64,000 nucleotides of DNA, taken from an uncultured Actinomycetota bacterium. GTDB taxonomy: Bacteria > Actinomycetota > Actinomycetes > Propionibacteriales > Nocardioidaceae. Below, in pieces: positions 52,665 through 64,000 of the stretch. The notes below the pieces were generated by a model, which had not been told where the DNA came from, ran no database searches, and saw nothing but the letters and a program-made list of their open reading frames with translations. Position numbers and translations under genes: made by a program. Numbering within the stretch: the stretch's first letter is position 1; each line of letters opens with the position of its first letter. The DNA lies in the NCBI GenBank assembly GCA_963723945.1, contig CAVRSW010000025.1:6962-70961 (forward strand), given 5' to 3'.

Positions 52665-53348
52665 ATGAGCAGGCCATTACGGCTGGCCATCGTCGATGAC
52701 TACGCCGTGGTCATTGCAGGAGTCGCTTCGTTCTTGGCGGCCGAGCGGATCGACGTGGTCGAGACCGGGGCGTCGATGCCCGTCATCAGCGACGTCGACA
52801 TCGTCCTCTACGACACGTTCGGCCAGATCCAGGGCCACGGCATCGATCTGGAGGACTTCGTCCGCGACAGCGGCGCGAAGGTGGTCATCTACAGCTGGAA
52901 CCTCGAGCCGGAGATCATCCAGCAATCGGTGGCCGCTGGTGCCAGTGGCTACCTCTCGAAGGTGCTCACCGGCCCCGAGATCGTCGCTGCGCTCGAGCGG
53001 GTGATGGGCGGCGAGGTCGTCATCCTCCCCGGTGACTTCGAGACGAGCGTGGCCGGCGCGGGCGACTGGCCGGGCCGGTCCGCGGGGCTGTCCCCGCGTG
53101 AGGCCGAAGTGGTGGCGTTGATCACCCAGGGGCTGAGCAACCAGGAGATCGCCGATCGCGTGTTCGTCAGCATCAACTCGGTCAAGAGCTACATCCGCAA
53201 CGCCTACCGCAAGATCGGCGTCGAGCGGCGCTCGCAAGCCGTGGTGTGGGCCGTGGAGAACGGCTTCAAGCCCGACACCCTGCGCACCGTGGACCCTGCA
53301 CTCCTGTTGCGCCCCACGCGGCTGGCATCCCGACCTTCCACGTCCTAG
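52665..53348 (+). CDS. Orphan NarL/LuxR-type response regulator
   Basis: IVDD, DIVLYD and GYLSK receiver motifs; LSPREAEV..GLSNQEIA HTH; no adjacent kinase. Confidence 0.88.
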   Translation: MSRPLRLAIVDDYAVVIAGVASFLAAERIDVVETGASMPVISDVDIVLYDTFGQIQGHGIDLEDFVRDSGAKVVIYSWNLEPEIIQQSVAAGASGYLSKVLTGPEIVAALERVMGGEVVILPGDFETSVAGAGDWPGRSAGLSPREAEVVALITQGLSNQEIADRVFVSINSVKSYIRNAYRKIGVERRSQAVVWAVENGFKPDTLRTVDPALLLRPTRLASRPSTS

Positions 53349-53680: not shown

Positions 53681-54280
53681 TCACAGACCCAGTCGCTCGT
53701 ACGCCGCCGCGAGCCGTTCGGCAGCCCGGTCCTTGACCGCCTGGTACTGCGAACCGCCGTGGGCGTCGATGGCCACGAACAGCGGACCGAAGTCCTTGAC
53801 CCGGAACTTCCAGAGGCACTCCGGCATCAGGTCGGTCCAGACGACGTCCTCGATCTCCTCGATCTGCTGGGTCTCGGGGCTGGCTGCGCCTCCGGTGATC
53901 GCGAGGTAGACGCTGCCGGCCTCCTGCAGCTGGGTGACCGACTGGGCGCTGAGGCCGCCCTTGCCGACGATCGCGCCGACGCCGAGGTCGAGGACGCAGC
54001 CGCCGGTGAACCGGTCGCTGCGCATCGACGTCGTGGTGCCGACCGAGACCGGCACCCACCGGTCGCCGTCGCGGCGCACGCTCGGCGCCGTGTGCAGGAA
54101 CACCGCTCCCTCGAAGTCGATGTCGGGCCGCTGCCCCTCGTCGAAGAGCCGGATCAGGGAGGCGTCGCGGACGCCCCACACGATGCCGTCGAGCCACACC
54201 TCGTCGCCGAGCCGGAGCTCGCGTAGGTCCTCGGCACGCAGCGGCGGCGTCAGCCGCACCTGCCTCGCCTCAGTAGCCAT
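53681..54280 (-). CDS. Class I fumarate hydratase / L-tartrate dehydratase-like beta (C-terminal) subunit
   Basis: LRLGDEVWLDG..RD, GTTTSMR, IVGKGG, LMPECLW and FGPLFVAIDAHG motifs. Confidence 0.9.
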   Translation of the reverse strand: MATEARQVRLTPPLRAEDLRELRLGDEVWLDGIVWGVRDASLIRLFDEGQRPDIDFEGAVFLHTAPSVRRDGDRWVPVSVGTTTSMRSDRFTGGCVLDLGVGAIVGKGGLSAQSVTQLQEAGSVYLAITGGAASPETQQIEEIEDVVWTDLMPECLWKFRVKDFGPLFVAIDAHGGSQYQAVKDRAAERLAAAYERLGL

Positions 54281-55190
54281 AGGTCACCGCCCCGTCCGCC
54301 GCGACCGTGGCCCGGGCACGCTCGCCGCGCCAGCACTGGATGTTGACGGCCACCGGGTTGGAGGAGATGTGGGTGGCGGCGTACTCGACGTGGACCGCGA
54401 ACGAGGTCGTCGCGCCGCCCAGGCCCTGCGGCCCGATCCCGGTCGAGTTCAGCACCTCCAGCAGCTCGTCCTCGAGCGCGGCGATCTCCGGCTCGGGGTG
54501 CGGCTCCCCCACCGGCCGCAGGATGGCTCGCTTGGCCAGGGCAGTCACCAGGTCGGAGGTACCGCCCAGCCCGACCCCCACCACGGTCGGTGGGCAGGGC
54601 CGCGGCCCTGCCTCGACCACGCTGTCGAGGATGAAGCGCTTCACCCCGGCCACGCCGTCCGCGGGCTGGAGCATCTTCATGAACGACATGTTCTCGGAGC
54701 CCGACCCCTTCGGCACGATCAGGATCTCGACCTGGTCGCCACCGTCGTCGAACTCGACGTGCACGTCGGGGATGCCGACGCCGGTGTTGTCCTGGCGGTT
54801 CTCGCGGGTGAGCGGGTGCACGATGCTCGACCGGAGGTGGTGTCGGCCGGTCGCGCGGGCCACGCCCGCGCGCAGTGCCTCGACCAGACGGGCGCCGTTG
54901 ACCGCGGCCTCGGTGCCGATCCGGACGAAGAACACGCAGATCCCGGTGTCCTGGCACACGATGATCCCGGACTCGTCGGAGACGGAGATCGCCTCCACCA
55001 TCACCTCGAGTCGGCGTCGCGCGCCCGCCTCGACCTCGGCATCCTGGGTACGCCGGACCGCCGACCGTACGTCGGGCGGCAGGTCGGTCAACGCCTTCTT
55101 GTAGAGCGCGGCCGAGACCTCGACCAGGTCCTCGTAGGCCTGGTCGTCGTCCCACCGCACCCGTGCGGGTCCGGTCGCTGTCGTCGTCAT
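54270..55190 (-). CDS. Class I fumarate hydratase / L-tartrate dehydratase-like alpha (Fe-S) subunit
   Basis: CQDTG, KGSGSEN, PCPP, GIGPQGLGG and NIQCW motifs (three Fe-S Cys). Confidence 0.92.
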   Translation of the reverse strand: MTTTATGPARVRWDDDQAYEDLVEVSAALYKKALTDLPPDVRSAVRRTQDAEVEAGARRRLEVMVEAISVSDESGIIVCQDTGICVFFVRIGTEAAVNGARLVEALRAGVARATGRHHLRSSIVHPLTRENRQDNTGVGIPDVHVEFDDGGDQVEILIVPKGSGSENMSFMKMLQPADGVAGVKRFILDSVVEAGPRPCPPTVVGVGLGGTSDLVTALAKRAILRPVGEPHPEPEIAALEDELLEVLNSTGIGPQGLGGATTSFAVHVEYAATHISSNPVAVNIQCWRGERARATVAADGAVTYGY

Positions 55191-55203
55191 GTGCTCCTCC
55201 TGG

Positions 55204-55584
55204 TCAGGTGGGGTCGAGGGCTGAGTAGGTCAGGGTGGCCGCGCCGATGAGGAACAGCACGACGCAGAGGCCGGCGATCCCGGCGACCCAGCGGGCGCGG
55301 GAGCGCGGTTCGGTGCGGTAGTCGCGGACGAGCACCGCCATCCCCGCGGCCGCGTGCAGCAGCGCGGCAGCCAGCATCACGGCGTCCCACGCCACCCACA
55401 GTGCCGTCGTCCACCGCTGCGCGATGAAGGTGGCGCCGGTCTCGGCGACGTCGTGGACGAGGTGGGTGAGCGCGAAGTGGCCCAGGGCCAGCACGGCCAG
55501 CAGCACTCCGGTGACCCGGATCGTCAGGTAGCCGGCGCGCCGGTGCAGCCGCGTCGTACGGACTGCGGGGCTGAGGACCGCCAT
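55204..55584 (-). CDS. SdhD-like hydrophobic membrane anchor
   Basis: RVTGVLL..LGHF, LLHAAAG and VRDY motifs; SD gggagg 8 nt upstream. Confidence 0.85.
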   Translation of the reverse strand: MAVLSPAVRTTRLHRRAGYLTIRVTGVLLAVLALGHFALTHLVHDVAETGATFIAQRWTTALWVAWDAVMLAAALLHAAAGMAVLVRDYRTEPRSRARWVAGIAGLCVVLFLIGAATLTYSALDPT

Positions 55585-55585
55585 C

Positions 55586-56098
55586 TCACGCACCTCCCGT
55601 CACGATCGGGGCGAGGATCACGGCCGACCCCGCGACCGTGCCGACCAGCGAGACCACGACCACGCCGCCCAGCACGCGGGTCGCGGCGCGGGCGCCGAGG
55701 TCGAGCAGGTCGACGGCCACCAGCCGCAGCCCGTTGAGGGCGTGGAACAGCAGCGCCAGCAGCAGGCCGCACTCGAAGACCCGCATCACCGGGGTGCCGT
55801 AGAGCGCGTGCACCTCGTCGAAGCGGGCGGGCGAGAGCGCGTAGAGCGAGACGTCGAGCAGGTGCAGCACCAGGAACGCGAAGATCGCCACGCCGCTGAC
55901 CCGGTGCGCGAGGTGGGCCCAGCGGTTGGCCTCCGCCCGCTCGGCAGGGAGCCGGGCCAGCCGGGCCAGGACGCCGCGGCCGGGCCACGCACCGCCGTCG
56001 ACCGCGCGGGCGCCGCGCAGCACCACGACCACCGTGCCGGCCACGACCACGTTGACCGCCACGAAGCCGGCGACGAAGAGCGCCTGGGCCGCGGTCAC
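55586..56098 (-). CDS. SdhC-like cytochrome b556 subunit with an extra N-terminal helix
   Basis: HRVSGV..FLVLHLLD and FHALNGLRL motifs; GTG 56098 overlaps the flavoprotein stop. Confidence 0.85.
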   Translation of the reverse strand: MTAAQALFVAGFVAVNVVVAGTVVVVLRGARAVDGGAWPGRGVLARLARLPAERAEANRWAHLAHRVSGVAIFAFLVLHLLDVSLYALSPARFDEVHALYGTPVMRVFECGLLLALLFHALNGLRLVAVDLLDLGARAATRVLGGVVVVSLVGTVAGSAVILAPIVTGGA

Positions 56099-57819
56099 GA
56101 ACCGACCCCCTCGGGTGAGGTGCGGCTCAGGGCGACCGGCCGGAGCTCGGGCGCGAGCGAACCGTCGGGCGCCTGCCGCTGCACCACCTGCCGCAACCAG
56201 GTGGCGTCGTCGCGGTCGGGGAAGTCGGCCCGGGCGTGCGCCCCGCGGGTCTCCTCGCGCAGCTGCGCGCCGAGCACCACGGAGCGGGCCACGGCGACCT
56301 GGTTGCGGACGTCGAGGTACTCCTGCCAGGCCCGGTTGAAGCGCCGGTCGGGCGGCACGCCGACCGCCTCCAGCCGCTCGCGTACGCGGTCGAGCCGGTC
56401 GGCGGCCCGGTCGAGGCCGGCCCGGTCGCGGACCACGCCGCAGCCGGTCCACATCGCGTCCTTGACCTCGTCGGTGAGCAGGAACGGGTCGGTCCCGCCG
56501 GGGTCGGTGACGACGCCGGTCGCCCCGGCCACGACCTGCGCGACCGCCGTGCGGTCGACCGGCTTCCAGCCCCGGTCGGGCGCCAGGGCGGCGGCGGTGT
56601 CGCCGGCCCGGGCTCCGAAGACCGTCGACTCGGCGACGCCGTTGCCACCGAGCCGGTTGGCTCCGTGGACACCACCGGCGTCCTCGCCGGCCACCAGCAG
56701 CCCGTCGAGCTCGGTCCGGCAGTCGGGGTCGACCAGCACGCCGCCCATGTGGAAGTGCGCGGTCGGCGAGACCTCGACCGGGCCGGTGGCGAGGTCGCTG
56801 CCGATCTGCCGGGTGCGGGCGACCATGCCCGGGAACCGGCGCTCCACCTCCCCGGCGCCGAGGTGGGAGATGTCGATGAAGACGCCGCCGGCCCCGGAGC
56901 CGCGGCCGGCCATGATCTCCAGGTAGCTCGACCGGGACACGACGTCGCGCGTGGAACGCTCCAGCCGCTCCGGGTCGTAGCGCTCCATGTAGCGCTCGCC
57001 GGCGGCGTTGCGCAGGTGCGCTCCCGCGCCGCGCAGCCCCTCCTCGAGCACCGCGCCGGTCATCAGCGAGCGGCCGGCGAGGAGCCCGGTGGGGTGGAAC
57101 TGCATCATCTCCATGTCGCGCACCGGCAGGCCGGCCCGCAGGCACATCGCCAGCCCGTCCCCGGTCTTCTCCCGGGCAGGGGCCGCGATCCGGTACATCG
57201 TCGCCGCCCCTCCGGTGGCCATCACGAGCACCCGGCAGCGGACCAGCACGAACACCCCGCGGCGTACGTCGAGCGTGACGACGCCGCCGAGGCCGCCGTC
57301 GACGTCGCGCACCAGGTCGAGCGCCCGGTAGTCCTCCAGCTCGCGGACGCCGATCCGGAACATCTGGTCGCGCAGCCGCGACATGATCTCGATGCCGGTG
57401 AGGTCACCGCGGTGGACCGTCCGGTCGAACGACTGGCCGGCGAACGCCTTCTGCTTGATCCGGCCGTCCGGGCGCCGGTCGAAGAAGCACCCGACGCGGG
57501 TCTCGAGCTCGTGGATCACGCGCGGGGCGTCGTTGACCAGCGTCCACGCCAGCTCCTGGTCGTTGAGCCACGAGCCGCCCTCGAGGGTGTCCGCGAAGTG
57601 GCGCTCGACCGAGTCGGCGGGGTCGAGCACCGCGTTGTAGCCGCCCTGGACCATCCGGGTGCACCCCGAACGGCCGACCGCGCCCTTGCTGATCACGGTC
57701 ACGTCGAGGGTGGGCGCGGCGTCGTGGGCGTGCAGGGCGCACATCAGCCCGGCGCCACCGCTGCCGATGATCGCGACGTCGGTGTGCAGCTCCTCGACGT
57801 GGGGTCCGGTGGTCGTCAT
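56095..57819 (-). CDS. Succinate dehydrogenase/fumarate reductase-family flavoprotein (divergent SdhA-like paralogue)
   Basis: GSGGAG, RSGCTRMVQGG, QFHPTG, RDVVSR, HFHMGG, HGANRLGGN and ETRGAHAR motifs. Confidence 0.92.
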   Translation of the reverse strand: MTTTGPHVEELHTDVAIIGSGGAGLMCALHAHDAAPTLDVTVISKGAVGRSGCTRMVQGGYNAVLDPADSVERHFADTLEGGSWLNDQELAWTLVNDAPRVIHELETRVGCFFDRRPDGRIKQKAFAGQSFDRTVHRGDLTGIEIMSRLRDQMFRIGVRELEDYRALDLVRDVDGGLGGVVTLDVRRGVFVLVRCRVLVMATGGAATMYRIAAPAREKTGDGLAMCLRAGLPVRDMEMMQFHPTGLLAGRSLMTGAVLEEGLRGAGAHLRNAAGERYMERYDPERLERSTRDVVSRSSYLEIMAGRGSGAGGVFIDISHLGAGEVERRFPGMVARTRQIGSDLATGPVEVSPTAHFHMGGVLVDPDCRTELDGLLVAGEDAGGVHGANRLGGNGVAESTVFGARAGDTAAALAPDRGWKPVDRTAVAQVVAGATGVVTDPGGTDPFLLTDEVKDAMWTGCGVVRDRAGLDRAADRLDRVRERLEAVGVPPDRRFNRAWQEYLDVRNQVAVARSVVLGAQLREETRGAHARADFPDRDDATWLRQVVQRQAPDGSLAPELRPVALSRTSPEGVGS

Positions 57820-58514
57820 CGCGGCACCCTCCCGGTCCGTACGGCGCGGATCGCGGCTGCGGGGTCGAGGCCCTTGGGGCAGACCTCCGAGCAGGCGTAC
57901 ACGAAGTGGCAGCGGTCCACCCCGTCGGGGCCGGTCACCACCTCGAGCCGCTGCTCGGTCGCGGCGTCACGGGAGTCGTGGAGCAGCACCGTGGCGCGGG
58001 TCAGTGCCGCGGGCCCGAGGAAGGTCCGCCCGGCGCCGGCCACCCCGCATCCGGAGAAGCAGGCGCCGCACTGGATGCAGTCGAGGGCAGGGTCGATCGC
58101 CCGACGCTCCGCACCGTCGGGCGGTACGACCGCGGGCTCGTCGAGGTCCTCGCGCGGCACCAGCCAGGGCGTCACCCGGACCCACTCCTCCCAGAACGCC
58201 GCGGTGTCGACGACCAGGTCGCGCACCACCGGGAACCCGGCGGCCGGCTCGACGGTGACCTCGTCGGCGTCGTCGCGGATCGGGGCCTGGCAGGCCAGCG
58301 CCGCCCGGCCGTCGACCCGCACCGTGCAGGTGCCGCACATCGCGACCCGGCACGAGAACCGGAAGCCCAGCGTCGGGTCGTGGTCGCGGTAGACCGCCAT
58401 CAGCGCGTCGAGGACGGTCATCGGCGCGAACCGCTCCACCTCGAACTCCGAGCGCGACCCGGGCTCCGACCGGCGGACGCGGACCCGCACCGCGCCCTCG
58501 GCGCGGGCCGTCAC
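57816..58514 (-). CDS. SdhB-like iron-sulfur subunit
   Basis: CRVAMCGTC..C [2Fe-2S], CIQCGACFSGC [4Fe-4S] and CHFVYACSEVCP [3Fe-4S] motifs. Confidence 0.92.
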   Translation of the reverse strand: MTARAEGAVRVRVRRSEPGSRSEFEVERFAPMTVLDALMAVYRDHDPTLGFRFSCRVAMCGTCTVRVDGRAALACQAPIRDDADEVTVEPAAGFPVVRDLVVDTAAFWEEWVRVTPWLVPREDLDEPAVVPPDGAERRAIDPALDCIQCGACFSGCGVAGAGRTFLGPAALTRATVLLHDSRDAATEQRLEVVTGPDGVDRCHFVYACSEVCPKGLDPAAAIRAVRTGRVPR

Positions 58515-59257
58515 ACGACCTCCGTCCGGGTCACGGCGGCCCGGTGGGCGTGCCGGACGTGTGCCCGCGCGGCGCGGCCGGCCCCGGCGGCGTCCCCGGC
58601 GAGGACCGCCGCGAGGATCCGCGCGTGCTCGGTGCGGGAGCGACGGGCCCGGCCCGGGACCCGCAGCGTGGTGCTCATGCTGGTCCGCATCATCTCGTTG
58701 AGCACGTCCTGCACCTGCTCCATGAACCGGTTGCCGGACGCGCGGACGATCGCGAGGTGGAAGGCCGCGTCGAGCCGGCCGAGCTCCTCGTCGTCGACGT
58801 GGTCACCGAGCCGGTCGCCCTGCCAGGCGAGCTCGAGCGCGTCGAAGGCGTCCTGCACCTCCCGGAGGGCGCGGGTGTCCTGCTTGTCGGCCGCCCACGT
58901 CGTCGCCGGCACCTCGAGCGCCTCGCGCATCATGAACAGCTCGGAGAGGTCGTGGTGGTGACGCGCGAGCGACGCGCGCAGCCGCCGGCTCGTCTCGGGC
59001 TCCGCGACGAACACGCCGCGGCCGTGGACGACCTCGAGCCGCCCCTCCACCTCGAGCGCGGTGACCGCCTCGCGGACCGACGGCCGGCTGACCTGCAGCA
59101 GCTCCGCGATCTCCCGCTCCGACGGCAGCCGGTCGCCCGGTGCGAGCCGGCGCTCGTCGATCTCGCGCAGGATCTCCTCGCGGATGCGCAACGTCAGCCG
59201 ACGCGGCCCGATCACCTGCCAGGGCTGGGTCGGGCCGAGACCCCGCGTGCTGTCCAT
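58511..59257 (-). CDS. GntR/FadR (FCD) transcriptional regulator
   Basis: LPSERE..VSRPSVREA wHTH; FCD motifs REALE, DAAFH..ASGN and EH. Confidence 0.92.
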   Translation of the reverse strand: MDSTRGLGPTQPWQVIGPRRLTLRIREEILREIDERRLAPGDRLPSEREIAELLQVSRPSVREAVTALEVEGRLEVVHGRGVFVAEPETSRRLRASLARHHHDLSELFMMREALEVPATTWAADKQDTRALREVQDAFDALELAWQGDRLGDHVDDEELGRLDAAFHLAIVRASGNRFMEQVQDVLNEMMRTSMSTTLRVPGRARRSRTEHARILAAVLAGDAAGAGRAARAHVRHAHRAAVTRTEVV

Positions 59258-59274
59258 GGACACCCCTTCGTCAT

Positions 59275-59340
59275 GACGGTTTTGACTACTAACCAGATCC
59301 ACTTTAGTGTTTTAAAAGAGATCTGACCACTGACCACTTC
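59275..59340. promoter_or_regulatory. AT-rich divergent promoter region with paired heptamer repeats (candidate GntR operator)
   Basis: tgactac-taaccag (59283-59296) and tgaccac-tgaccac (59324-59337) flank the AT-rich core actttagtgttttaaaag. Confidence 0.55.
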
Positions 59341-59388
59341 CGGAACGGGTCCCGACAGGTCACCCGGCCGGCGTTACGAGGAGAGACG

Positions 59389-59691
59389 ATGACCGTTTCC
59401 GCACCAGGGTTCCTCGCCCACCGCACCGGCGACGCCGTCGCCGTGGCGGTGCAGGACCTCGAACCAGGAGCCGTCGCCGGCGGCTACCTCGACAGCGACC
59501 AGGTCGAGGAGGTCGAGCTGCGCCACCAGGTCCCGCTCGGCCACAAGCTCGCGCTCCGCGACGTCGCGGAGGGCGAGGAGGTCATCGAGTACGGCCTGCC
59601 GATCGGTCGGGCCACCGCGCCCATCGAGCGCGGCGACTACGTGCACACCCACAACGTGAGGAGCGTCAAGTGGCAGACCAGCGTCGCCTGA
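59389..59691 (+). CDS. suyA: (2R)-sulfolactate sulfo-lyase alpha subunit (SAF domain, UxaA family)
   Basis: H..GDAVAVAV, VPLGHKLA, IEYG..IG and VHTHNVRSVKW motifs; directly upstream of suyB. Confidence 0.8.
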   Translation: MTVSAPGFLAHRTGDAVAVAVQDLEPGAVAGGYLDSDQVEEVELRHQVPLGHKLALRDVAEGEEVIEYGLPIGRATAPIERGDYVHTHNVRSVKWQTSVA

Positions 59692-60830
59692 CCGGCTACC
59701 GCCGCCCCGACGGAACCGTCGGCACCCGCAACCACGTCGCGATCCTCCCGGTCGACGACCTGTCCAACGCCGCCGCCGAGGGCGTCGCGTCCCTGATCCC
59801 CGGGACCCTGGCACTCCCCCACGCGTTCGGTCGCCTGCAGTTCGGCGAGGACCTCGAGCTCACCTTCCGCACCCTGATCGGCGTCGGCTCCAACCCCAAC
59901 GTGGCGGCCGTGGTCGTGATCGGCATCGAGCCGAACTGGACCGCCCGGGTCGCCGACGGCATCGCCAAGTCCGGCAAGCCGGTCCACGCGATCTCGATCG
60001 AGGGCCGGGGCGACCTCAAGGTCGTCGAGGAGGTCTCGCACGTCGCCCAGCAGTTCCTGCAGGACGCCAGCGAGCTCCAGCGCGAGCCCGTCGAGCGCTC
60101 CGAGGTGCTGCTGACCATGAAGGACGGCGAGTCCGACACCACGACCGGCCTCGGCTCCTGCCGGGTCACGGCGTACCTCGTCGACAAGTGGGTCGACGAC
60201 GGCGGCACGGTGATCTTCGGCGAGACCAGCGAGCTGACCGGCGGCGAGCACCTGGTCGCCGAGCGCTGCGCCACCGACGAGGTGCGGGCCCGGTTCCAGT
60301 CGCTGTACGACGACTACATCGACATGATCGAGCAGACCGGTGCCAACCTGCTCGGCTCCCAGCCGACCCAGGGCAACATCGCCGGCGGTCTCTCCACGAT
60401 CGAGGAGAAGGCCCTCGGCAACATCGTGAAGACCGGCAGCCGGCCGATCGTCGGCGCGCTCGGCGCAGCCGAGGCTCCCACCACCGCCGGCCTGCACTTC
60501 ATGGACACCTCGTCCGCGGCCGCCGAGTGCGTGACCCTGATGACCGCCGCGGGCGGCGTGGTCAACATGTTCCCGACCGGCCAGGGCAACGTGATCGGCA
60601 ACCCGGTGCAGCCGGTGGTCAAGATCACCGCGAATCCGAAGACGGCAGCCTCCATGGCCGACCACATGGACGTCGACTGCTCGGGCGTGCTCGCCTCCAC
60701 CACCTCGGTCGAGGAGGCCGGCGAGCAGCTGATCGACATCGTCGAGCGCACCATCAACGGCCGGATCACCTGCGCCGAAGCGCTCAACCACCGCGAGTTC
60801 ACCCTCACCAAGCTCTACCGCAGCGCCTGA
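59670..60830 (+). CDS. suyB: (2R)-sulfolactate sulfo-lyase beta subunit (UxaA family)
   Basis: Motifs I recall as SuyB-clade: LPVDDLSNAAAE, PHAFGRLQFGEDL, GETSELTGGEH, MDTSSAAAE and HREFTLTKLYRSA. Confidence 0.85.
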   Translation: MADQRRLTGYRRPDGTVGTRNHVAILPVDDLSNAAAEGVASLIPGTLALPHAFGRLQFGEDLELTFRTLIGVGSNPNVAAVVVIGIEPNWTARVADGIAKSGKPVHAISIEGRGDLKVVEEVSHVAQQFLQDASELQREPVERSEVLLTMKDGESDTTTGLGSCRVTAYLVDKWVDDGGTVIFGETSELTGGEHLVAERCATDEVRARFQSLYDDYIDMIEQTGANLLGSQPTQGNIAGGLSTIEEKALGNIVKTGSRPIVGALGAAEAPTTAGLHFMDTSSAAAECVTLMTAAGGVVNMFPTGQGNVIGNPVQPVVKITANPKTAASMADHMDVDCSGVLASTTSVEEAGEQLIDIVERTINGRITCAEALNHREFTLTKLYRSA

Positions 60831-60837
60831 GGGCAGG

Positions 60838-60873
60838 GACCGGCCCGACGACGGATCCGTCGCCGGGCCGGTC
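60838..60873 (+). terminator. 36-bp near-perfect palindromic hairpin after suyB
   Basis: gaccggcccgacgacgga|tccgtcgccgggccggtc (one mismatch), followed by an AT-rich tract at 60883-60920. Confidence 0.6.
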
Positions 60874-60941
60874 ACCCCACACCTCATTCTCGCTCTTTTT
60901 ACTTAAATTACACTACTACTCTCCCCGAGGACGGACACGAC

Positions 60942-61922
60942 GTGGACACCATCGACCGACCGGCACCGGCCACCGCGGCCCGCGTCGTCGTCGCCGAGGG
61001 CGTGTGGGGCGCTCCGCTCGAGCAGCTGGCGCGGGTGCACGACGTCGTCAGGCTCGACGCCGCGGAGACCTCGCCGGCCCGCGACGACGGGCTGGCCGGG
61101 GCCACCGCACTCGTGGTCCGCAACCGCACCCGGGTCACCCGTGAGCTGCTCGAGGCCCACCCCGCGCTGCGGGTCGTCGCCCGCGCCGGCGTCGGCCTCG
61201 ACAACATCGACCTCGACGCCGCCGACGACACCGGCACCGTCGTGCTCTCGCCCCGCGGCGCCAACGCGCGCAGCGTCGCCGAGCACGCCCTCGGCCTGGC
61301 GCTCGCGGTGCAGCGCCACGTGGTCGCCCTCGACCGGCAGTGCCGGGCCGGCGCGTGGGACCGGCGGCCGGGTCGCGAGCTGCTCGGCGGCACCTGGGGC
61401 GTCGTCGGGGCCGGGGCCACCGGCCGTGCCTGCGCCGACCTCGCCGCCGCCCTCGGGATGCGCGTCGTCGCCCACGACCCGTACGCCGACCCGTCCGACC
61501 TGCGCGGCCTCGAGCTGGGTGACCTGCACGAGGTGGCCGCCGCGGCCGACGTGCTGTCGATCCACCTGCCCGGCGGGCCCGGGACCACCGGCCTGGTCGA
61601 CGACGCGCTGCTGGCGACCATGAAGCCCACCGCGATCCTGCTCAATCTCGGCCGCGGCGAGATCGTCGACGAGGACGCCCTCGTACGCGCGCTGCAGGAG
61701 GGCCGGCTGGCCGGCGCCGGGCTCGACGTCCGGGCCACCGAGCCGCCCGTGACCGGCGTCCTGGAGACGCTGCCCACGGTGGTGCTCACCCCGCACGTCG
61801 CGGGCCTCACCGAGCAGAGCCAGCAGCGGATCACCCAGGTGCTGGCCGCCGAGCTCGCCACCGTGCTCGGCGGCGGCACGGCCACCGCGGCCGTCGGGCG
61901 CCATCGGGAGCTGGTCCGATGA
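60942..61922 (+). CDS. D-isomer-specific 2-hydroxyacid dehydrogenase (SerA-like, no ACT domain)
   Basis: ARAGVGLDNID, NARSVAEH, GAGATG, NLGRG, LDV..EP and TPHVAG motifs. Confidence 0.9.
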   Translation: MDTIDRPAPATAARVVVAEGVWGAPLEQLARVHDVVRLDAAETSPARDDGLAGATALVVRNRTRVTRELLEAHPALRVVARAGVGLDNIDLDAADDTGTVVLSPRGANARSVAEHALGLALAVQRHVVALDRQCRAGAWDRRPGRELLGGTWGVVGAGATGRACADLAAALGMRVVAHDPYADPSDLRGLELGDLHEVAAAADVLSIHLPGGPGTTGLVDDALLATMKPTAILLNLGRGEIVDEDALVRALQEGRLAGAGLDVRATEPPVTGVLETLPTVVLTPHVAGLTEQSQQRITQVLAAELATVLGGGTATAAVGRHRELVR

Positions 61923-62971
61923 ACGACGTCCGGACCGTCGGCACCCTCCGCCACCTCGCCACCCGGCTGCTGGCCGCGAGCGGGCTGCCCGACGCGCGCG
62001 CCGCCCGGACCGCCGAGGTGCTCCTGCTCGCCGAGTCGTGGGGCGTGGGCTCGCACGGCCTGATGCGACTCCCCTACTACCTGTCGCGCCTCGCCGCCGG
62101 CGGCCACGACCCGGCGGCCGACCTCGAGACCGCACAGGACTCCGGCCCCGTGGTGTCGCTCCGCGGCCACGCCGGCCTCGGCCACTGGCAGGCCTGGACC
62201 GCTGCCGAGCTCGCCACCGAGCGGGCCCGGCAGTACGGCGTCGCCGCGGTGACCGTCTCCGACTCGGGCCACTGCGGCGCGCTGGGCGCGTACGTGCTGC
62301 CCGGCCTGCAGGCCGGCCTGGTCACGATCGTCGTGTCCAACGGCCCGGCCGCCATGGCCCCGTGGGGGTCGGCCACCGCCGAGCTCTCCACGTCGCCGAT
62401 CGCGGCGGGGGTGCCGTGCCGTCCCCGACCGATGATCGTCGACATGGCCCTGAGCAACGTCGCCCGGGGCAGGATCGCCGCACGCGCCCGGACCGGCGAG
62501 CAGCTGCCCGAGGGGTGGGCGCTCGACGCCGAGGGCCGCCCGACCACCGACGCCGCCGTCGCGCTCCGCGGTCTGCTCGCCCCGCTCGGCGGCGCCAAGG
62601 GGTTCGCGCTCGCGCTGCTGGTCGAGTCGCTCACCGGCGGTGTCGTCGGTCCGGCGCTGTCGCGCGACGTCAGCGACATGTTCGCCGCCGACCAGGTCGC
62701 CCGACCGCAGCGGATCGCCCACACCCTGATCACGCTCGACCCTGCCCGGCTCGACCCGGACGGTGGCGACGGCGCCCGTAGCCGCCTCGACGCCCTCGCC
62801 CGCAACGTCACCGGGGCCGGCGCCCGGCTCCCGGGTGCCTCGCGCCGGCTGCCCGCCGAGATCCCGGACGACGAGCCGGTGGCGCTCGACCCCGACCTCG
62901 ACCGCGAGCTGGCCGGCTGGGCCGCCCGACTCCTGACCGTTTCGACCACCACCGGAGGGACTGCCCGATGA
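61919..62971 (+). CDS. Ldh_2 family (ComC/AllD-like) dehydrogenase; candidate (R)-sulfolactate dehydrogenase
   Basis: GVGSHGLMRLPYY, SGHCGALG, STSPIA, VDMALS, GWALD..G.PTTD and GGAKG motifs; ATGA overlaps. Confidence 0.85.
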   Translation: MNDVRTVGTLRHLATRLLAASGLPDARAARTAEVLLLAESWGVGSHGLMRLPYYLSRLAAGGHDPAADLETAQDSGPVVSLRGHAGLGHWQAWTAAELATERARQYGVAAVTVSDSGHCGALGAYVLPGLQAGLVTIVVSNGPAAMAPWGSATAELSTSPIAAGVPCRPRPMIVDMALSNVARGRIAARARTGEQLPEGWALDAEGRPTTDAAVALRGLLAPLGGAKGFALALLVESLTGGVVGPALSRDVSDMFAADQVARPQRIAHTLITLDPARLDPDGGDGARSRLDALARNVTGAGARLPGASRRLPAEIPDDEPVALDPDLDRELAGWAARLLTVSTTTGGTAR

Positions 62972-63807
62972 CGACCAGGACCAGGACCAGAGGCCGCGGG
63001 ACGCGGACGGCGGGGCACGACGCCCCGCACGCCGGACCGATCCTCTCGGTCTCGCACGCCCAGCTCGGGTACGTCGTGGACGGTCAGCCGACCGTCGCCG
63101 TCCGCGACGCCAGCTTCGAGGTGCAGCGGGGCGAGAAGATCATGCTGCTCGGACCGTCCGGCTGCGGGAAGTCGACGCTGCTCAAGGCCGTCGCCGGCTT
63201 CCTCGAGCCGTTCGGCGGTGACCTGCGGGTGACGGGCGAGCCGGTCACCACGCCGGGCCCCGACCGCGCCGTCGTGTTCCAGGAGTTCGACCAGCTGTTC
63301 CCGTGGCGTACGGTCCGCGGCAACCTGGTCTACCCGCAACGGGTCAACGGCCGCTCCAAGGCCGAGGCGGGCGCCCGGGCCGACGAGTACCTGCGCCTGA
63401 TGCAGCTCGAGCACGCCCGCGACCGCTACCCGCACCAGCTCTCCGGCGGCATGAAGCAGCGGGTGGCCATCGCCCGCGCCCTCGCGCTCGACCCCGCGCT
63501 GCTGCTCATGGACGAGCCGTTCGGCGCACTCGACGCGCAGACCCGGTCACGGCTCCAGGGTGAGCTCAACGACGTCGCCGAGCGCACCGGCGTGACCATC
63601 CTCTTCGTCACCCACAGCATCCAGGAGGCGGTCTTCGTCGGCCACCGCGTCGTGGTGCTCTCGAAGCCGCCCTCCACCGTCGTCGACGTGGTCGACGTCC
63701 GCGGCCTCGACGACCCCGCCGACCCGGCGTTCACGGAGGCGATGCAGCGGCTGCGCGGGCTGCTCTCCGAGGACGGCGCCGAGACCGAGCACGCCTCGTT
63801 CGAGTAG
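62968..63807 (+). CDS. ABC transporter ATP-binding protein, nitrate/sulfonate/taurine (TauB/SsuB) type
   Basis: [40 protein letters not shown] and FVTHS motifs. Confidence 0.92.
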
Positions 63808-63815
63808 GAGCCGAC

Positions 63816-64000
63816 ATGACCGAGACCACTGCCACCGTCGAGCCCACCACGACCTCGACCCCGCCACCCACGCCGAGCCGCCGGAAGCGCCGCGGGTGGG
63901 GCAGCCTGCCGACCTTCCCCCGACGTGCCGCCATCGTGATCGGCCTGCTGGCCGTCTGGCAGCTGTACGTCGTGATGTCGGGCGTCAGCCCGCTGCTCGT
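63816..64000 (+). CDS. ABC transporter permease (TauC/SsuC-type), N-terminal part (runs off window end)
   Basis: SD aggag, ATG 63816; [35 protein letters not shown] matches the first TM of such permeases. Confidence 0.7.

Follow-up and report, generated by a model that had tools for sequence, protein, structure and literature searches.

3-Sulfopropionate is formed naturally by bacteria (PMC11489063) and is one of the end products of the metabolism of sulfoquinovose, dihydroxypropanesulfonate (DHPS), and homotaurine in the gut and in the environment. A paper from 2024 describes its degradation as unreported except for a thesis on Roseovarius nubinhibens (PMC11489063), and a review from 2026 calls the mechanism of its breakdown in B. 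wadsworthia unclear (PMC12890257). In the thesis, the homotaurine route of R. nubinhibens ISM passes through 3-sulfopropionate, sulfoacrylate, and sulfolactate (Mayer thesis via PMC11489063). For sulfolactate itself, the SuyAB-SlcC-ComC system is described from Chromohalobacter salexigens, Paracoccus, and Cupriavidus pinatubonensis (background on SuyAB in parts of PMC6336799 and PMC11382572). Here we compare with these systems a divergent locus headed by a GntR regulator, located in a 64,000-nucleotide stretch of DNA (the window) from an uncultured soil actinobacterium, which corresponds to positions 6962-70961 of contig C25 (CAVRSW010000025.1). The closest relatives at the locus are Nocardioidaceae. 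The source genome has a size of 3.2 Mb, a completeness of 77%, and a G+C content of 73%, which the locus matches (0.737).

We are confident that this is a real, conserved organosulfonate locus. As judged from its genes, the main line probably leads from 3-sulfopropionate through sulfoacrylate and (R)-sulfolactate to pyruvate and sulfite. The genes, their families and motifs, the paralogy, and the cross-phylum linkage support the overall interpretation proposed in an earlier sequence-only reading of the window, the substrate of the dehydrogenase itself being a prediction. The route of R. nubinhibens ISM has the same intermediates, and the passage of PMC11489063 names no genes for it.

Proposed pathway and organization of the locus

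The proposed pathway mirrors the reactions from succinate to malate, with 3-sulfopropionate as the sulfonate analogue of succinate. In it, an ATP-binding cassette (ABC) transporter would import a three-carbon sulfonate, its presumed cargo. A membrane-bound complex similar to succinate dehydrogenase (SDH) would then oxidize 3-sulfopropionate to sulfoacrylate, both the substrate and the direction being predicted, with the electrons passing from flavin adenine dinucleotide (FAD) through three Fe-S clusters to menaquinone. An Fe-S hydratase would add water to sulfoacrylate, its putative substrate, to give (R)-sulfolactate, which SuyAB would split into pyruvate and sulfite, the latter being exported by TauE. 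The assignment of the R enantiomer in the sequence-only reading is correct, because the geometry of L-malate corresponds to (R)-sulfolactate by the Cahn-Ingold-Prelog rules. Through sulfopyruvate, the dehydrogenases resembling SlcC and ComC would turn (S)- into (R)-sulfolactate, and such a racemase side entry would let sulfolactate from other microbes enter the main line. A FadR-type regulator would control both arms from the divergent region between them. The chemistry of SuyAB, SlcC/ComC, and TauE is established for their relatives and is carried over here by analogy. The components are the following.

53681..54280, minus strand: class I Fe-S hydro-lyase β subunit (F1 type, PF05683), likely sulfoacrylate hydratase
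54270..55190, minus strand: class I Fe-S hydro-lyase α subunit (F1 type, PF05681; PRK06246 at 332 bits, above the cut-off of 276)
55204..55584, minus strand: SdhD-like membrane anchor (PF01127; start at 55584 read from the sequence)
55586..56098, minus strand: SdhC-like membrane anchor (PF01127; TIGR02970 above cut-off)
56095..57819, minus strand: SdhA/FrdA-like flavoprotein (C53, R55, E259; PF00890 and PF02910), likely 3-sulfopropionate dehydrogenase
57816..58514, minus strand: SdhB-like iron-sulfur subunit with three cluster motifs (Fer2_3 and Fer4_8; TIGR00384 above cut-off; Cys motifs from the sequence)
58511..59257, minus strand: FadR-type GntR regulator (GntR and FCD, PF00392 and PF07729), first gene of the left arm
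59282..59336, plus strand: upstream block, candidate promoter and FadR-type operator of suyA (conserved TTGAC, 17 nt, TAG.GT, then GAG(G/A)TC(A/T)GACCACTGACCA)
59389..59691, plus strand: SuyA, sulfolactate sulfo-lyase α (SAF domain)
59670..60830, plus strand: SuyB, sulfolactate sulfo-lyase β (PF04295 and PF20629)
60942..61922, plus strand: D-2-hydroxyacid dehydrogenase, SlcC-like (PF00389 and PF02826), likely (S)-sulfolactate dehydrogenase
61919..62971, plus strand: Ldh_2 dehydrogenase, ComC-like (PF02615), likely (R)-sulfolactate dehydrogenase
62968..63807, plus strand: NrtD/SsuB/TauB-type ABC ATPase (profile matches)
63816..64000, plus strand: ABC permease, cut by the window end, continuing to the end of C25 and onto contig C26
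C26, 290-1276: SsuA-like binding protein
C26, 1365-2120: TauE exporter

Domain and profile matches recovered all 13 genes of the sequence-only reading in the order, positions, and families that it gave. Its TauB-like ATPase is indeed an ABC ATPase, while the label TauB is unspecific, the protein lying below all curated cut-offs. The intergenic gaps range from -22 to +13 nt, except for 131 nt in the gntR/suyA divergent region and 111 nt after suyB. C25 stops 459 nt beyond the window, inside the permease gene; public contigs extend beyond this end. The permease of a relative (locus L002, from an unpublished genome) matches the end of C25 over its residues 1-175 and the start of C26 over residues 177-245, and the C26 binding protein is also matched by proteins of loci L003, L004, and L031. 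We infer the join from this protein continuity, the two contig ends sharing no overlap. With the permease, the binding protein, and TauE continuing on C26, the locus likely consists of 15 genes, and the binding protein and sulfite exporter that had been expected beyond the 64 kb are both found after the permease. A LuxR-type regulator at 52665-53348, next to the locus, forms no cluster with genes of the related loci.

A complex II with an altered substrate site

The complex resembles E. coli SdhCDAB and FrdABCD in its four subunits, the fold, the three Fe-S motifs, the catalytic His/Arg set, and the His and Arg residues of the anchors. It differs from them by an identity of only ~33%, by being accessory, by the gene order gntR-B-A-C-D-hydratase, and by three residues of the flavoprotein, namely a Cys for the FAD-binding His, an invariant Arg55, and a Glu for Thr. 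The flavoprotein scores below every curated cut-off for SDH, fumarate reductase (FRD), NadB, and TfrA. Its structure model, which has a confidence (pLDDT) of 85, superimposes on E. coli FrdA with a TM-score of 0.89, and H242, E260, R291, H355, and R389 are retained relative to this enzyme. Cys53 at the position of the FAD-anchoring His, together with the added Arg55, is found in the window and in all 79 relatives from the GTDB collection that cover these positions, while Glu259 substitutes the Thr of the (T/S)-E-x-x-R-G (MTEG) motif in 80 of 80 GTDB relatives and 8 of 8 plasmid relatives. The covalent FAD-binding His of a canonical complex II is thus absent, and the canonical dicarboxylate site (His-His-Arg-Arg-Glu plus Thr/Ser) is incomplete, since Thr is exchanged for Glu259; the three-cluster Fe-S subunit and the membrane anchors are present.

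The replaced Thr is the residue that we take to bind the distal carboxylate, i.e., the end where the sulfonate would sit. Cys53 could still hold FAD covalently, and Arg55 might compensate for Glu259. Placing Arg55 and Glu259 from the predicted structure was attempted and given up, the fold being confirmed and the active-site loops being too uncertain (pLDDT <50 at 54-60, 124-140, and 387-391); for this reason the model is silent on the compensation by Arg55.

In the anchors, R66, H79, and H119 of the SdhC-like and H36, H41, and H77 of the SdhD-like subunit are kept in 17/17 related anchors each. That at least four conserved His and the Arg of the quinone site are retained points to a complex that contains haem and is linked to quinones.

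Two other assignments can be compared. Many relatives of the flavoprotein are automatically named fumarate reductase or L-aspartate oxidase; however, the SDH/FRD motif KAFAGQ, with Phe126, stands where the REGGH motif of the L-aspartate oxidase NadB has its Glu. The methanogen TfrAB resembles the window proteins in that TfrA is the best NCBIfam model for the flavoprotein. It differs in that the score is 537 bits against a cut-off of 718, that the window SdhB, at 232 aa, matches no more of the TfrB model (488 positions) than positions 4-213, and that the window has membrane anchors.

The separate housekeeping sdh and fum loci that the sequence-only reading called for are present in the source genome: sdhCAB lies on C27, C13 has both frdABCD and a class I fumarase, and the NadB gene is located on C37. 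The C13 locus (112539-116816) is of the E. coli type and hints at low-oxygen growth. Two genes of the sulfite-oxidase family lie on C27 and C31. The idea that the clade might be the only SDH in Chloroflexia was rejected, as five of five genomes (four Chloroflexia, one Thermomicrobiales) have a second, His-bearing SdhA, the motifs of five other genomes having been read for part of the matches.

Sulfo-lyase, hydratase types, and linkage across genomes

SuyA is 41% identical to its counterpart in the C. pinatubonensis hpsRNOUP-suyAB cluster, and SuyB is 58% identical over 389 aa to the hps-cluster SuyB of C. pinatubonensis HN-2, as compared to ~40% or less for other UxaA subfamilies; the SuyB orthology rests on this gap in pairwise identity within the UxaA superfamily. 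Many close SuyB relatives are automatically named sulfolactate sulfo-lyase β. The two proteins form a split UxaA-family pair with an SAF and a GD_AH subunit, a form that, according to a passage of PMC6336799, is not by itself unique to SuyAB. Directly after suyAB follow the PF00389/PF02826 and PF02615 dehydrogenases, which are 42-44% identical to the Paracoccus and Methylobacterium pairs. In the part of PMC12421959 on Paracoccus Merri, SlcC and ComC belong to these same families and the order is suyA-suyB-slcC-comC, as in the window. The best NCBIfam model of the Ldh_2 protein is L-sulfolactate dehydrogenase, at 183 bits against a cut-off of 500 for a model built on another lineage. The locus thus shares with the described SuyAB-SlcC-ComC systems the families, the gene order, and the presence of a GntR regulator and TauE. 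It differs in its actinobacterial host and in the feed, an SDH-like complex and a hydratase taking the place of HpsN or a sulfosugar pathway. The two sulfolactate-type dehydrogenases of the sequence-only reading most likely form the racemase side entry and lie outside the main line. Six loci with full flanks (L006, L007, L025, L030, L032, L040) contain suyB and neither dehydrogenase, so that the hydratase product likely feeds SuyAB directly.

The window hydratase contains the three cluster Cys and the catalytic Asp/Thr motifs of class I fumarate hydratases. It resembles two-subunit class I fumarate hydratases and L-tartrate dehydratases in CQDTG, PKGxGSEN, CPP with a third Cys, and GKGG, and differs from them in G-[IV]-R-D for T-A-R-D, LRSS for LRPN, and the tie to suyAB. 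The β subunit, which lies below all curated cut-offs, aligns with the β subunit of Methanocaldococcus jannaschii fumarate hydratase (7XKY_B) and has GTTTS instead of GPTTS. Its G36 and T82 are traits of one of two hydratase types that we distinguish in the related loci. The first (F1) retains CQDTG (in 42/42 α proteins), PKGSGSE, and GTTTSxRM, while the second (F2) has C[GA]DTG, HKGGLFG, and TATASFRF; the two are separate clades whose α subunits are 34% identical. A 2-hydroxy acid product would agree with the catalytic motifs of fumarase that are preserved in F1. With sulfolactate as the likely product, the F1 substrate would be sulfoacrylate, and the substrate of the dehydrogenase would in turn be 3-sulfopropionate.

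The distribution of suyB follows the hydratase type. Even sampling of species genomes gave 401 from Alphaproteobacteria and 400 from Gammaproteobacteria (two centre genomes were not random picks), and the flavoprotein clade was found in 34 and 13 of them, respectively. From the 49 proteobacterial matches, 40 were opened, with seven near contig ends and two already in the set excluded and two having no called hydratase. In this sample, suyB occurs in all 12 F1 genomes (adjacent in 7) vs 8 of 26 F2 genomes (adjacent in none). In the GTDB set, where about half of the collection was covered and the best 80 of 583 relatives were retained, the numbers are 20/30 for F1 and 0/13 for F2. Altogether, four alkene-hydrating modules are found after the dehydrogenase: F1, F2, an argininosuccinate-lyase (ASL)-like protein, and a CoA ligase with an enoyl-CoA hydratase, one of the four kinds being nearly always downstream of the flavoprotein gene. 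The ASL-like gene neighbours that of the dehydrogenase in 10 GTDB loci, of which 9 lack F1. Its first NCBIfam match is ArgH and its second XcbC, the latter below cut-off. According to a passage of PMC9457059, XcbC makes sulfoacrylate from phosphosulfolactate. XcbC belongs to the aspartase/fumarase superfamily and forms sulfoacrylate from a sulfolactate derivative, and a relative replaces the hydratase in related loci. In contrast to the proposed pathway, XcbC is biosynthetic (bacterial coenzyme M) and eliminates phosphate, and the window locus has no such gene. Malonate-semialdehyde dehydrogenase was tried as a marker of F2 and rejected as weak: full genes occur in two plasmid loci (L087, L088) and a 75-aa fragment in L091, with none in the 26 sampled F2 loci.

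The linkage of the SDH-like arm with sulfonate genes, which the sequence-only reading asked for across genomes, is observed with suyAB, tauE, YeiH/SuyZ, sulfite oxidases, and comA in several phyla and in haloarchaea. Within the family, 2 of 200 other genomes contain the clade and 6 of 200 contain suyB; the two with the clade, one of them an unpublished genome (G022), have suyB within 3 kb; some counts include the unpublished genomes G022/G211 and G214. The GTDB relatives come from Actinomycetota, Bacillota, Chloroflexota including SAR202, Planctomycetota, Proteobacteria, and haloarchaea. Among these 80 loci, suyB lies within the fetched flanks (10 kb) in 22, several loci being cut short, and is found at 55% identity or more somewhere in the genome in 40. 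TauE, YeiH/SuyZ exporters, sulfite oxidases, Mo-enzymes, ComA, and Ldh_2 recur nearby. A Methylobacterium radiotolerans plasmid has the order sdh-fum-tauE-suyAB-dehydrogenases-gntR, Paracoccus versutus carries the module within an island with hpsNOP, suyABZ, and a sulfite oxidase, and in Natribaculum luteum suyAB-like genes and tauE accompany it. TauE and a sulfate exporter lie near the module of M. nodulans, Pseudomonas MPC6, and Pseudorhizobium NT-26, with no suyAB within 12 kb, and in Sulfitobacter S190 neither TauE, a sulfate exporter, nor suyAB was found within this distance. On a plasmid of the well-studied actinobacterium Rhodococcus jostii RHA1 (NC_008269.1:795288-817041), the flavoprotein (74%) and suyB (70%) are ~19 kb apart. 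A thiamine-diphosphate enzyme similar to 2-hydroxyacyl-CoA lyase or acetolactate synthase recurs beside the proteobacterial module (L085:15726-17351, L087:6930-8558, L138, L149, L172).

A further link comes from proteomics. In the parts of PMC12421959 that concern Paracoccus wurundjeri grown on sulfofucose, a "cluster 3" of fumarate/tartrate genes and TauE is induced, which the authors link to the Krebs cycle. The log2 changes are +5.5 for the Fe-S subunit, +4.3 for an anchor, +9.9 for the flavoprotein, +6.1 and +7.3 for the hydratase, +8.4 for a LysR regulator, and +5.8 to +9.8 for ABC parts, i.e., 4.3-9.9 overall or 20- to 960-fold, with several glucose values in the table (supplement 2) looking imputed. 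In the same data, SuyB/SlcC/ComC change by +6.3/+5.4/+8.4, housekeeping SdhA by -0.46, and FumC not at all. The gene order of cluster 3 is that of the P. versutus module, and the masses pair as 36.24/36.24, 64.35/63.92, 34.73/34.95, and 24.56/24.55 kDa, from which, rather than from sequence, we consider the two orthologous. The induction ties the module to growth on a sulfonate; the inducer may be sulfolactate or sulfite.

As to regulation, the GntR regulator has partners of 49-57% identity in 7 actinobacterial GTDB loci. The block upstream of suyA is kept in 5 of 6 aligned regions (one row being the unpublished L002), including suyAB loci without the SDH arm, and resembles a FadR-family operator, for which it is a candidate. 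A scan of the sequence for promoters and terminators gave no sites, the block falling below the promoter threshold. A strong G+C hairpin after suyB (60838-60873 and 60885-60920), followed by an A+T-rich tract, may be a terminator or processing site with an internal promoter for the dehydrogenase and ABC genes.

Two other observations concern the surroundings of suy genes. Four family relatives (L103-L106, in G183, G191, G142, and G027) have suyAB without the SDH arm and share a fumarylacetoacetate hydrolase (FAH)-family protein, a cupin, an oxidoreductase-like protein of ~355 aa, a creatininase-like hydrolase, and a D-2-hydroxyacid dehydrogenase, with an ABC importer in two of them; this set probably marks a further, so far undescribed way for sulfonates to reach SuyAB. 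By the suy genes of L002 (1-3582), L104 (10978-16395), L108 (48-3871), and L003 (11818-13472) lies a molybdopterin enzyme whose 4Fe-4S/membrane subunit is fused, a candidate sulfite:quinone oxidoreductase; an enzyme of this type was not found in the source genome.

Alternative readings and implications

Several points weigh against 3-sulfopropionate as the substrate. Although the pocket is changed at the place expected for a sulfonate, an acid is an odd, unexplained residue in an anion pocket. The C53/R55/E259 signature also occurs without a nearby sulfonate gene or a genomic suyB in 5 Chloroflexia/Thermomicrobiales loci, in 17/17 SAR202-type loci (five of which do carry a sulfite oxidase and a rhodanese), and in part of the Planctomycetota, and in a proteobacterial branch, which may handle other acids, the place of the sulfonate genes is taken by a CoA ligase, an enoyl-CoA hydratase, PrpD, and glutamate mutase. 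The clade may therefore act on several substrates. A suyB match was missing in 10 of the 30 F1 genomes of the GTDB set, and the Fisher P of ~5e-5 for the association of suyB with hydratase type is overstated because related genomes are not independent. Of the aminotransferase or aldehyde dehydrogenase that the sequence-only reading suggested looking for, neither a homotaurine aminotransferase nor an aldehyde dehydrogenase is present in this locus; genes for possible upstream enzymes occur occasionally elsewhere (class III aminotransferase in L063 and L066, aldehyde dehydrogenase of the succinate-semialdehyde type in L090, iron alcohol dehydrogenase in L030 and L040). Cluster 3 is F2-type, its orthology comes from gene order and masses, and sulfofucose is not known to give 3-sulfopropionate, so that its induction indicates a response to a sulfonate or sulfite only. 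Among Roseobacter relatives, R. nubinhibens was not one of the 120 matches listed of at least 8000, which is uninformative on its absence. Finally, the direction could be reductive instead.

The layouts of the loci concerned are of interest in their own right. L014-L016, L018, and L019 have an F1-type module among the replication and folate genes dnaN, recF, fhs, and folD, without sulfonate genes. The SAR202-type loci (L064-L078, L081) show two layouts, one with a rhodanese, a cupin, and a sulfite oxidase and no Fe-S hydratase, the other with an F2 hydratase, next to which glycine-reductase-B-like genes are often found; these genomes gave no suyB match. The proteobacterial branch (L047-L062, L036, L063, L066) has IclR, a CoA ligase, enoyl-CoA hydratases, PrpD, and in some cases glutamate mutase, and its FAG motif is changed to LAG.

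We have also considered a four-carbon sulfonate as the substrate, for instance sulfosuccinate, which may also arise as the adduct of sulfite and fumarate. It would be dehydrogenated and hydrated to sulfomalate, oxidized and decarboxylated to sulfopyruvate, and reduced to (R)-sulfolactate, which SuyAB would cleave. This route would employ both dehydrogenases in line, the extra charged group could account for the invariant Arg55, an oxaloacetate-decarboxylase-like gene is present in L006 and L027, and the sulfofucose induction could reflect sulfite damage. However, the decarboxylase is absent from nearly all loci, the six suyB loci mentioned above have no dehydrogenase, and the dehydrogenase pair matches the SlcC/ComC racemase in families and order; a literature search for bacterial sulfosuccinate desulfonation turned up only a surfactant review. 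We regard this route as unlikely.

Somewhat less likely still is the reverse operation of the module, in which sulfolactate would be dehydrated to sulfoacrylate and reduced to 3-sulfopropionate as an electron sink, analogous to fumarate respiration. The loss of the flavin-anchoring His is common to reductases, the best model is TfrA, the source genome also carries frdABCD, and the module is induced when sulfolactate forms inside the cell. On the other hand, an importer and SuyAB, whose removal of sulfolactate is irreversible, are tightly linked to the module, Cys53 could bind FAD covalently after all, and sulfofucose degradation in Paracoccus is complete with release of sulfite (abstract of PMC12421959).

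An equally low probability is assigned to a spare SDH and fumarase standing by chance beside a sulfolactate operon, or to a dehydrogenase of a non-sulfonated succinate analogue. The retained H242, E260, R291, H355, and R389, the hydratase α subunit passing the fumarate hydratase cut-off, and the loci without sulfonate genes are in line with it, but the sulfonate linkage is repeated in many gene orders and phyla, the substrate pocket is altered, the four Chloroflexia genomes and the Thermomicrobiales genome each have a second, His-bearing SdhA, and the Paracoccus cluster is induced by a sulfosugar (in the data of PMC12421959).

Least probable is that the flavoprotein acts like an L-aspartate oxidase on an amino sulfonate, namely L-cysteate, the analogue of aspartate, whose amine Glu259 would bind, and that the product sulfopyruvate passes through ComC to SuyAB, which would account for the acid in the pocket and the automatic naming of many relatives as L-aspartate oxidase but is at odds with Phe126 where NadB has Glu, and leaves the near-constant alkene hydratase, of four kinds, after the flavoprotein gene unexplained.

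Oxidation of 3-sulfopropionate is thus the reading that we retain. The sequence-only reading knew of no characterized actinobacterial version and allowed for a prior proposal. No gene assignment for 3-sulfopropionate oxidation was found in the literature searched, which excluded subscription journals and the Mayer thesis, and the route had already been proposed in that thesis, as cited in the passage of PMC11489063. The chemistry was thus anticipated, and the genes appear unpublished. The present analysis itself tests the division into two hydratase types and the link to proteomics, through which the published sulfosugar-induced Paracoccus cluster, connected by its authors to the Krebs cycle in the part of PMC12421959 concerned, is reinterpreted.

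A wider and more tentative idea, which we consider possible rather than likely, is that a widespread complex II family with Cys-linked flavin oxidizes organosulfonates and passes the electrons to the quinone pool, sulfoacrylate being a sulfur-cycle hub for the four unrelated modules. F1 and the ASL-like protein would lead to sulfolactate for SuyAB, whereas the remodelled F2 and the CoA-ligase/enoyl-CoA hydratase module would hydrate the sulfonate carbon, giving sulfite and malonate semialdehyde directly, a C-S cleavage without a sulfo-lyase that SAR202 and many marine Alphaproteobacteria would use.

If the proposed reaction is correct, the window complex would be a complex II that acts on a compound other than a dicarboxylate. 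The locus supplies candidate enzymes for the breakdown of 3-sulfopropionate, a step of the sulfur cycle that recent papers call open, and the module is carried by culturable and harmless organisms, namely Methylobacterium radiotolerans, Paracoccus versutus, Prauserella rugosa, and Rhodococcus jostii.

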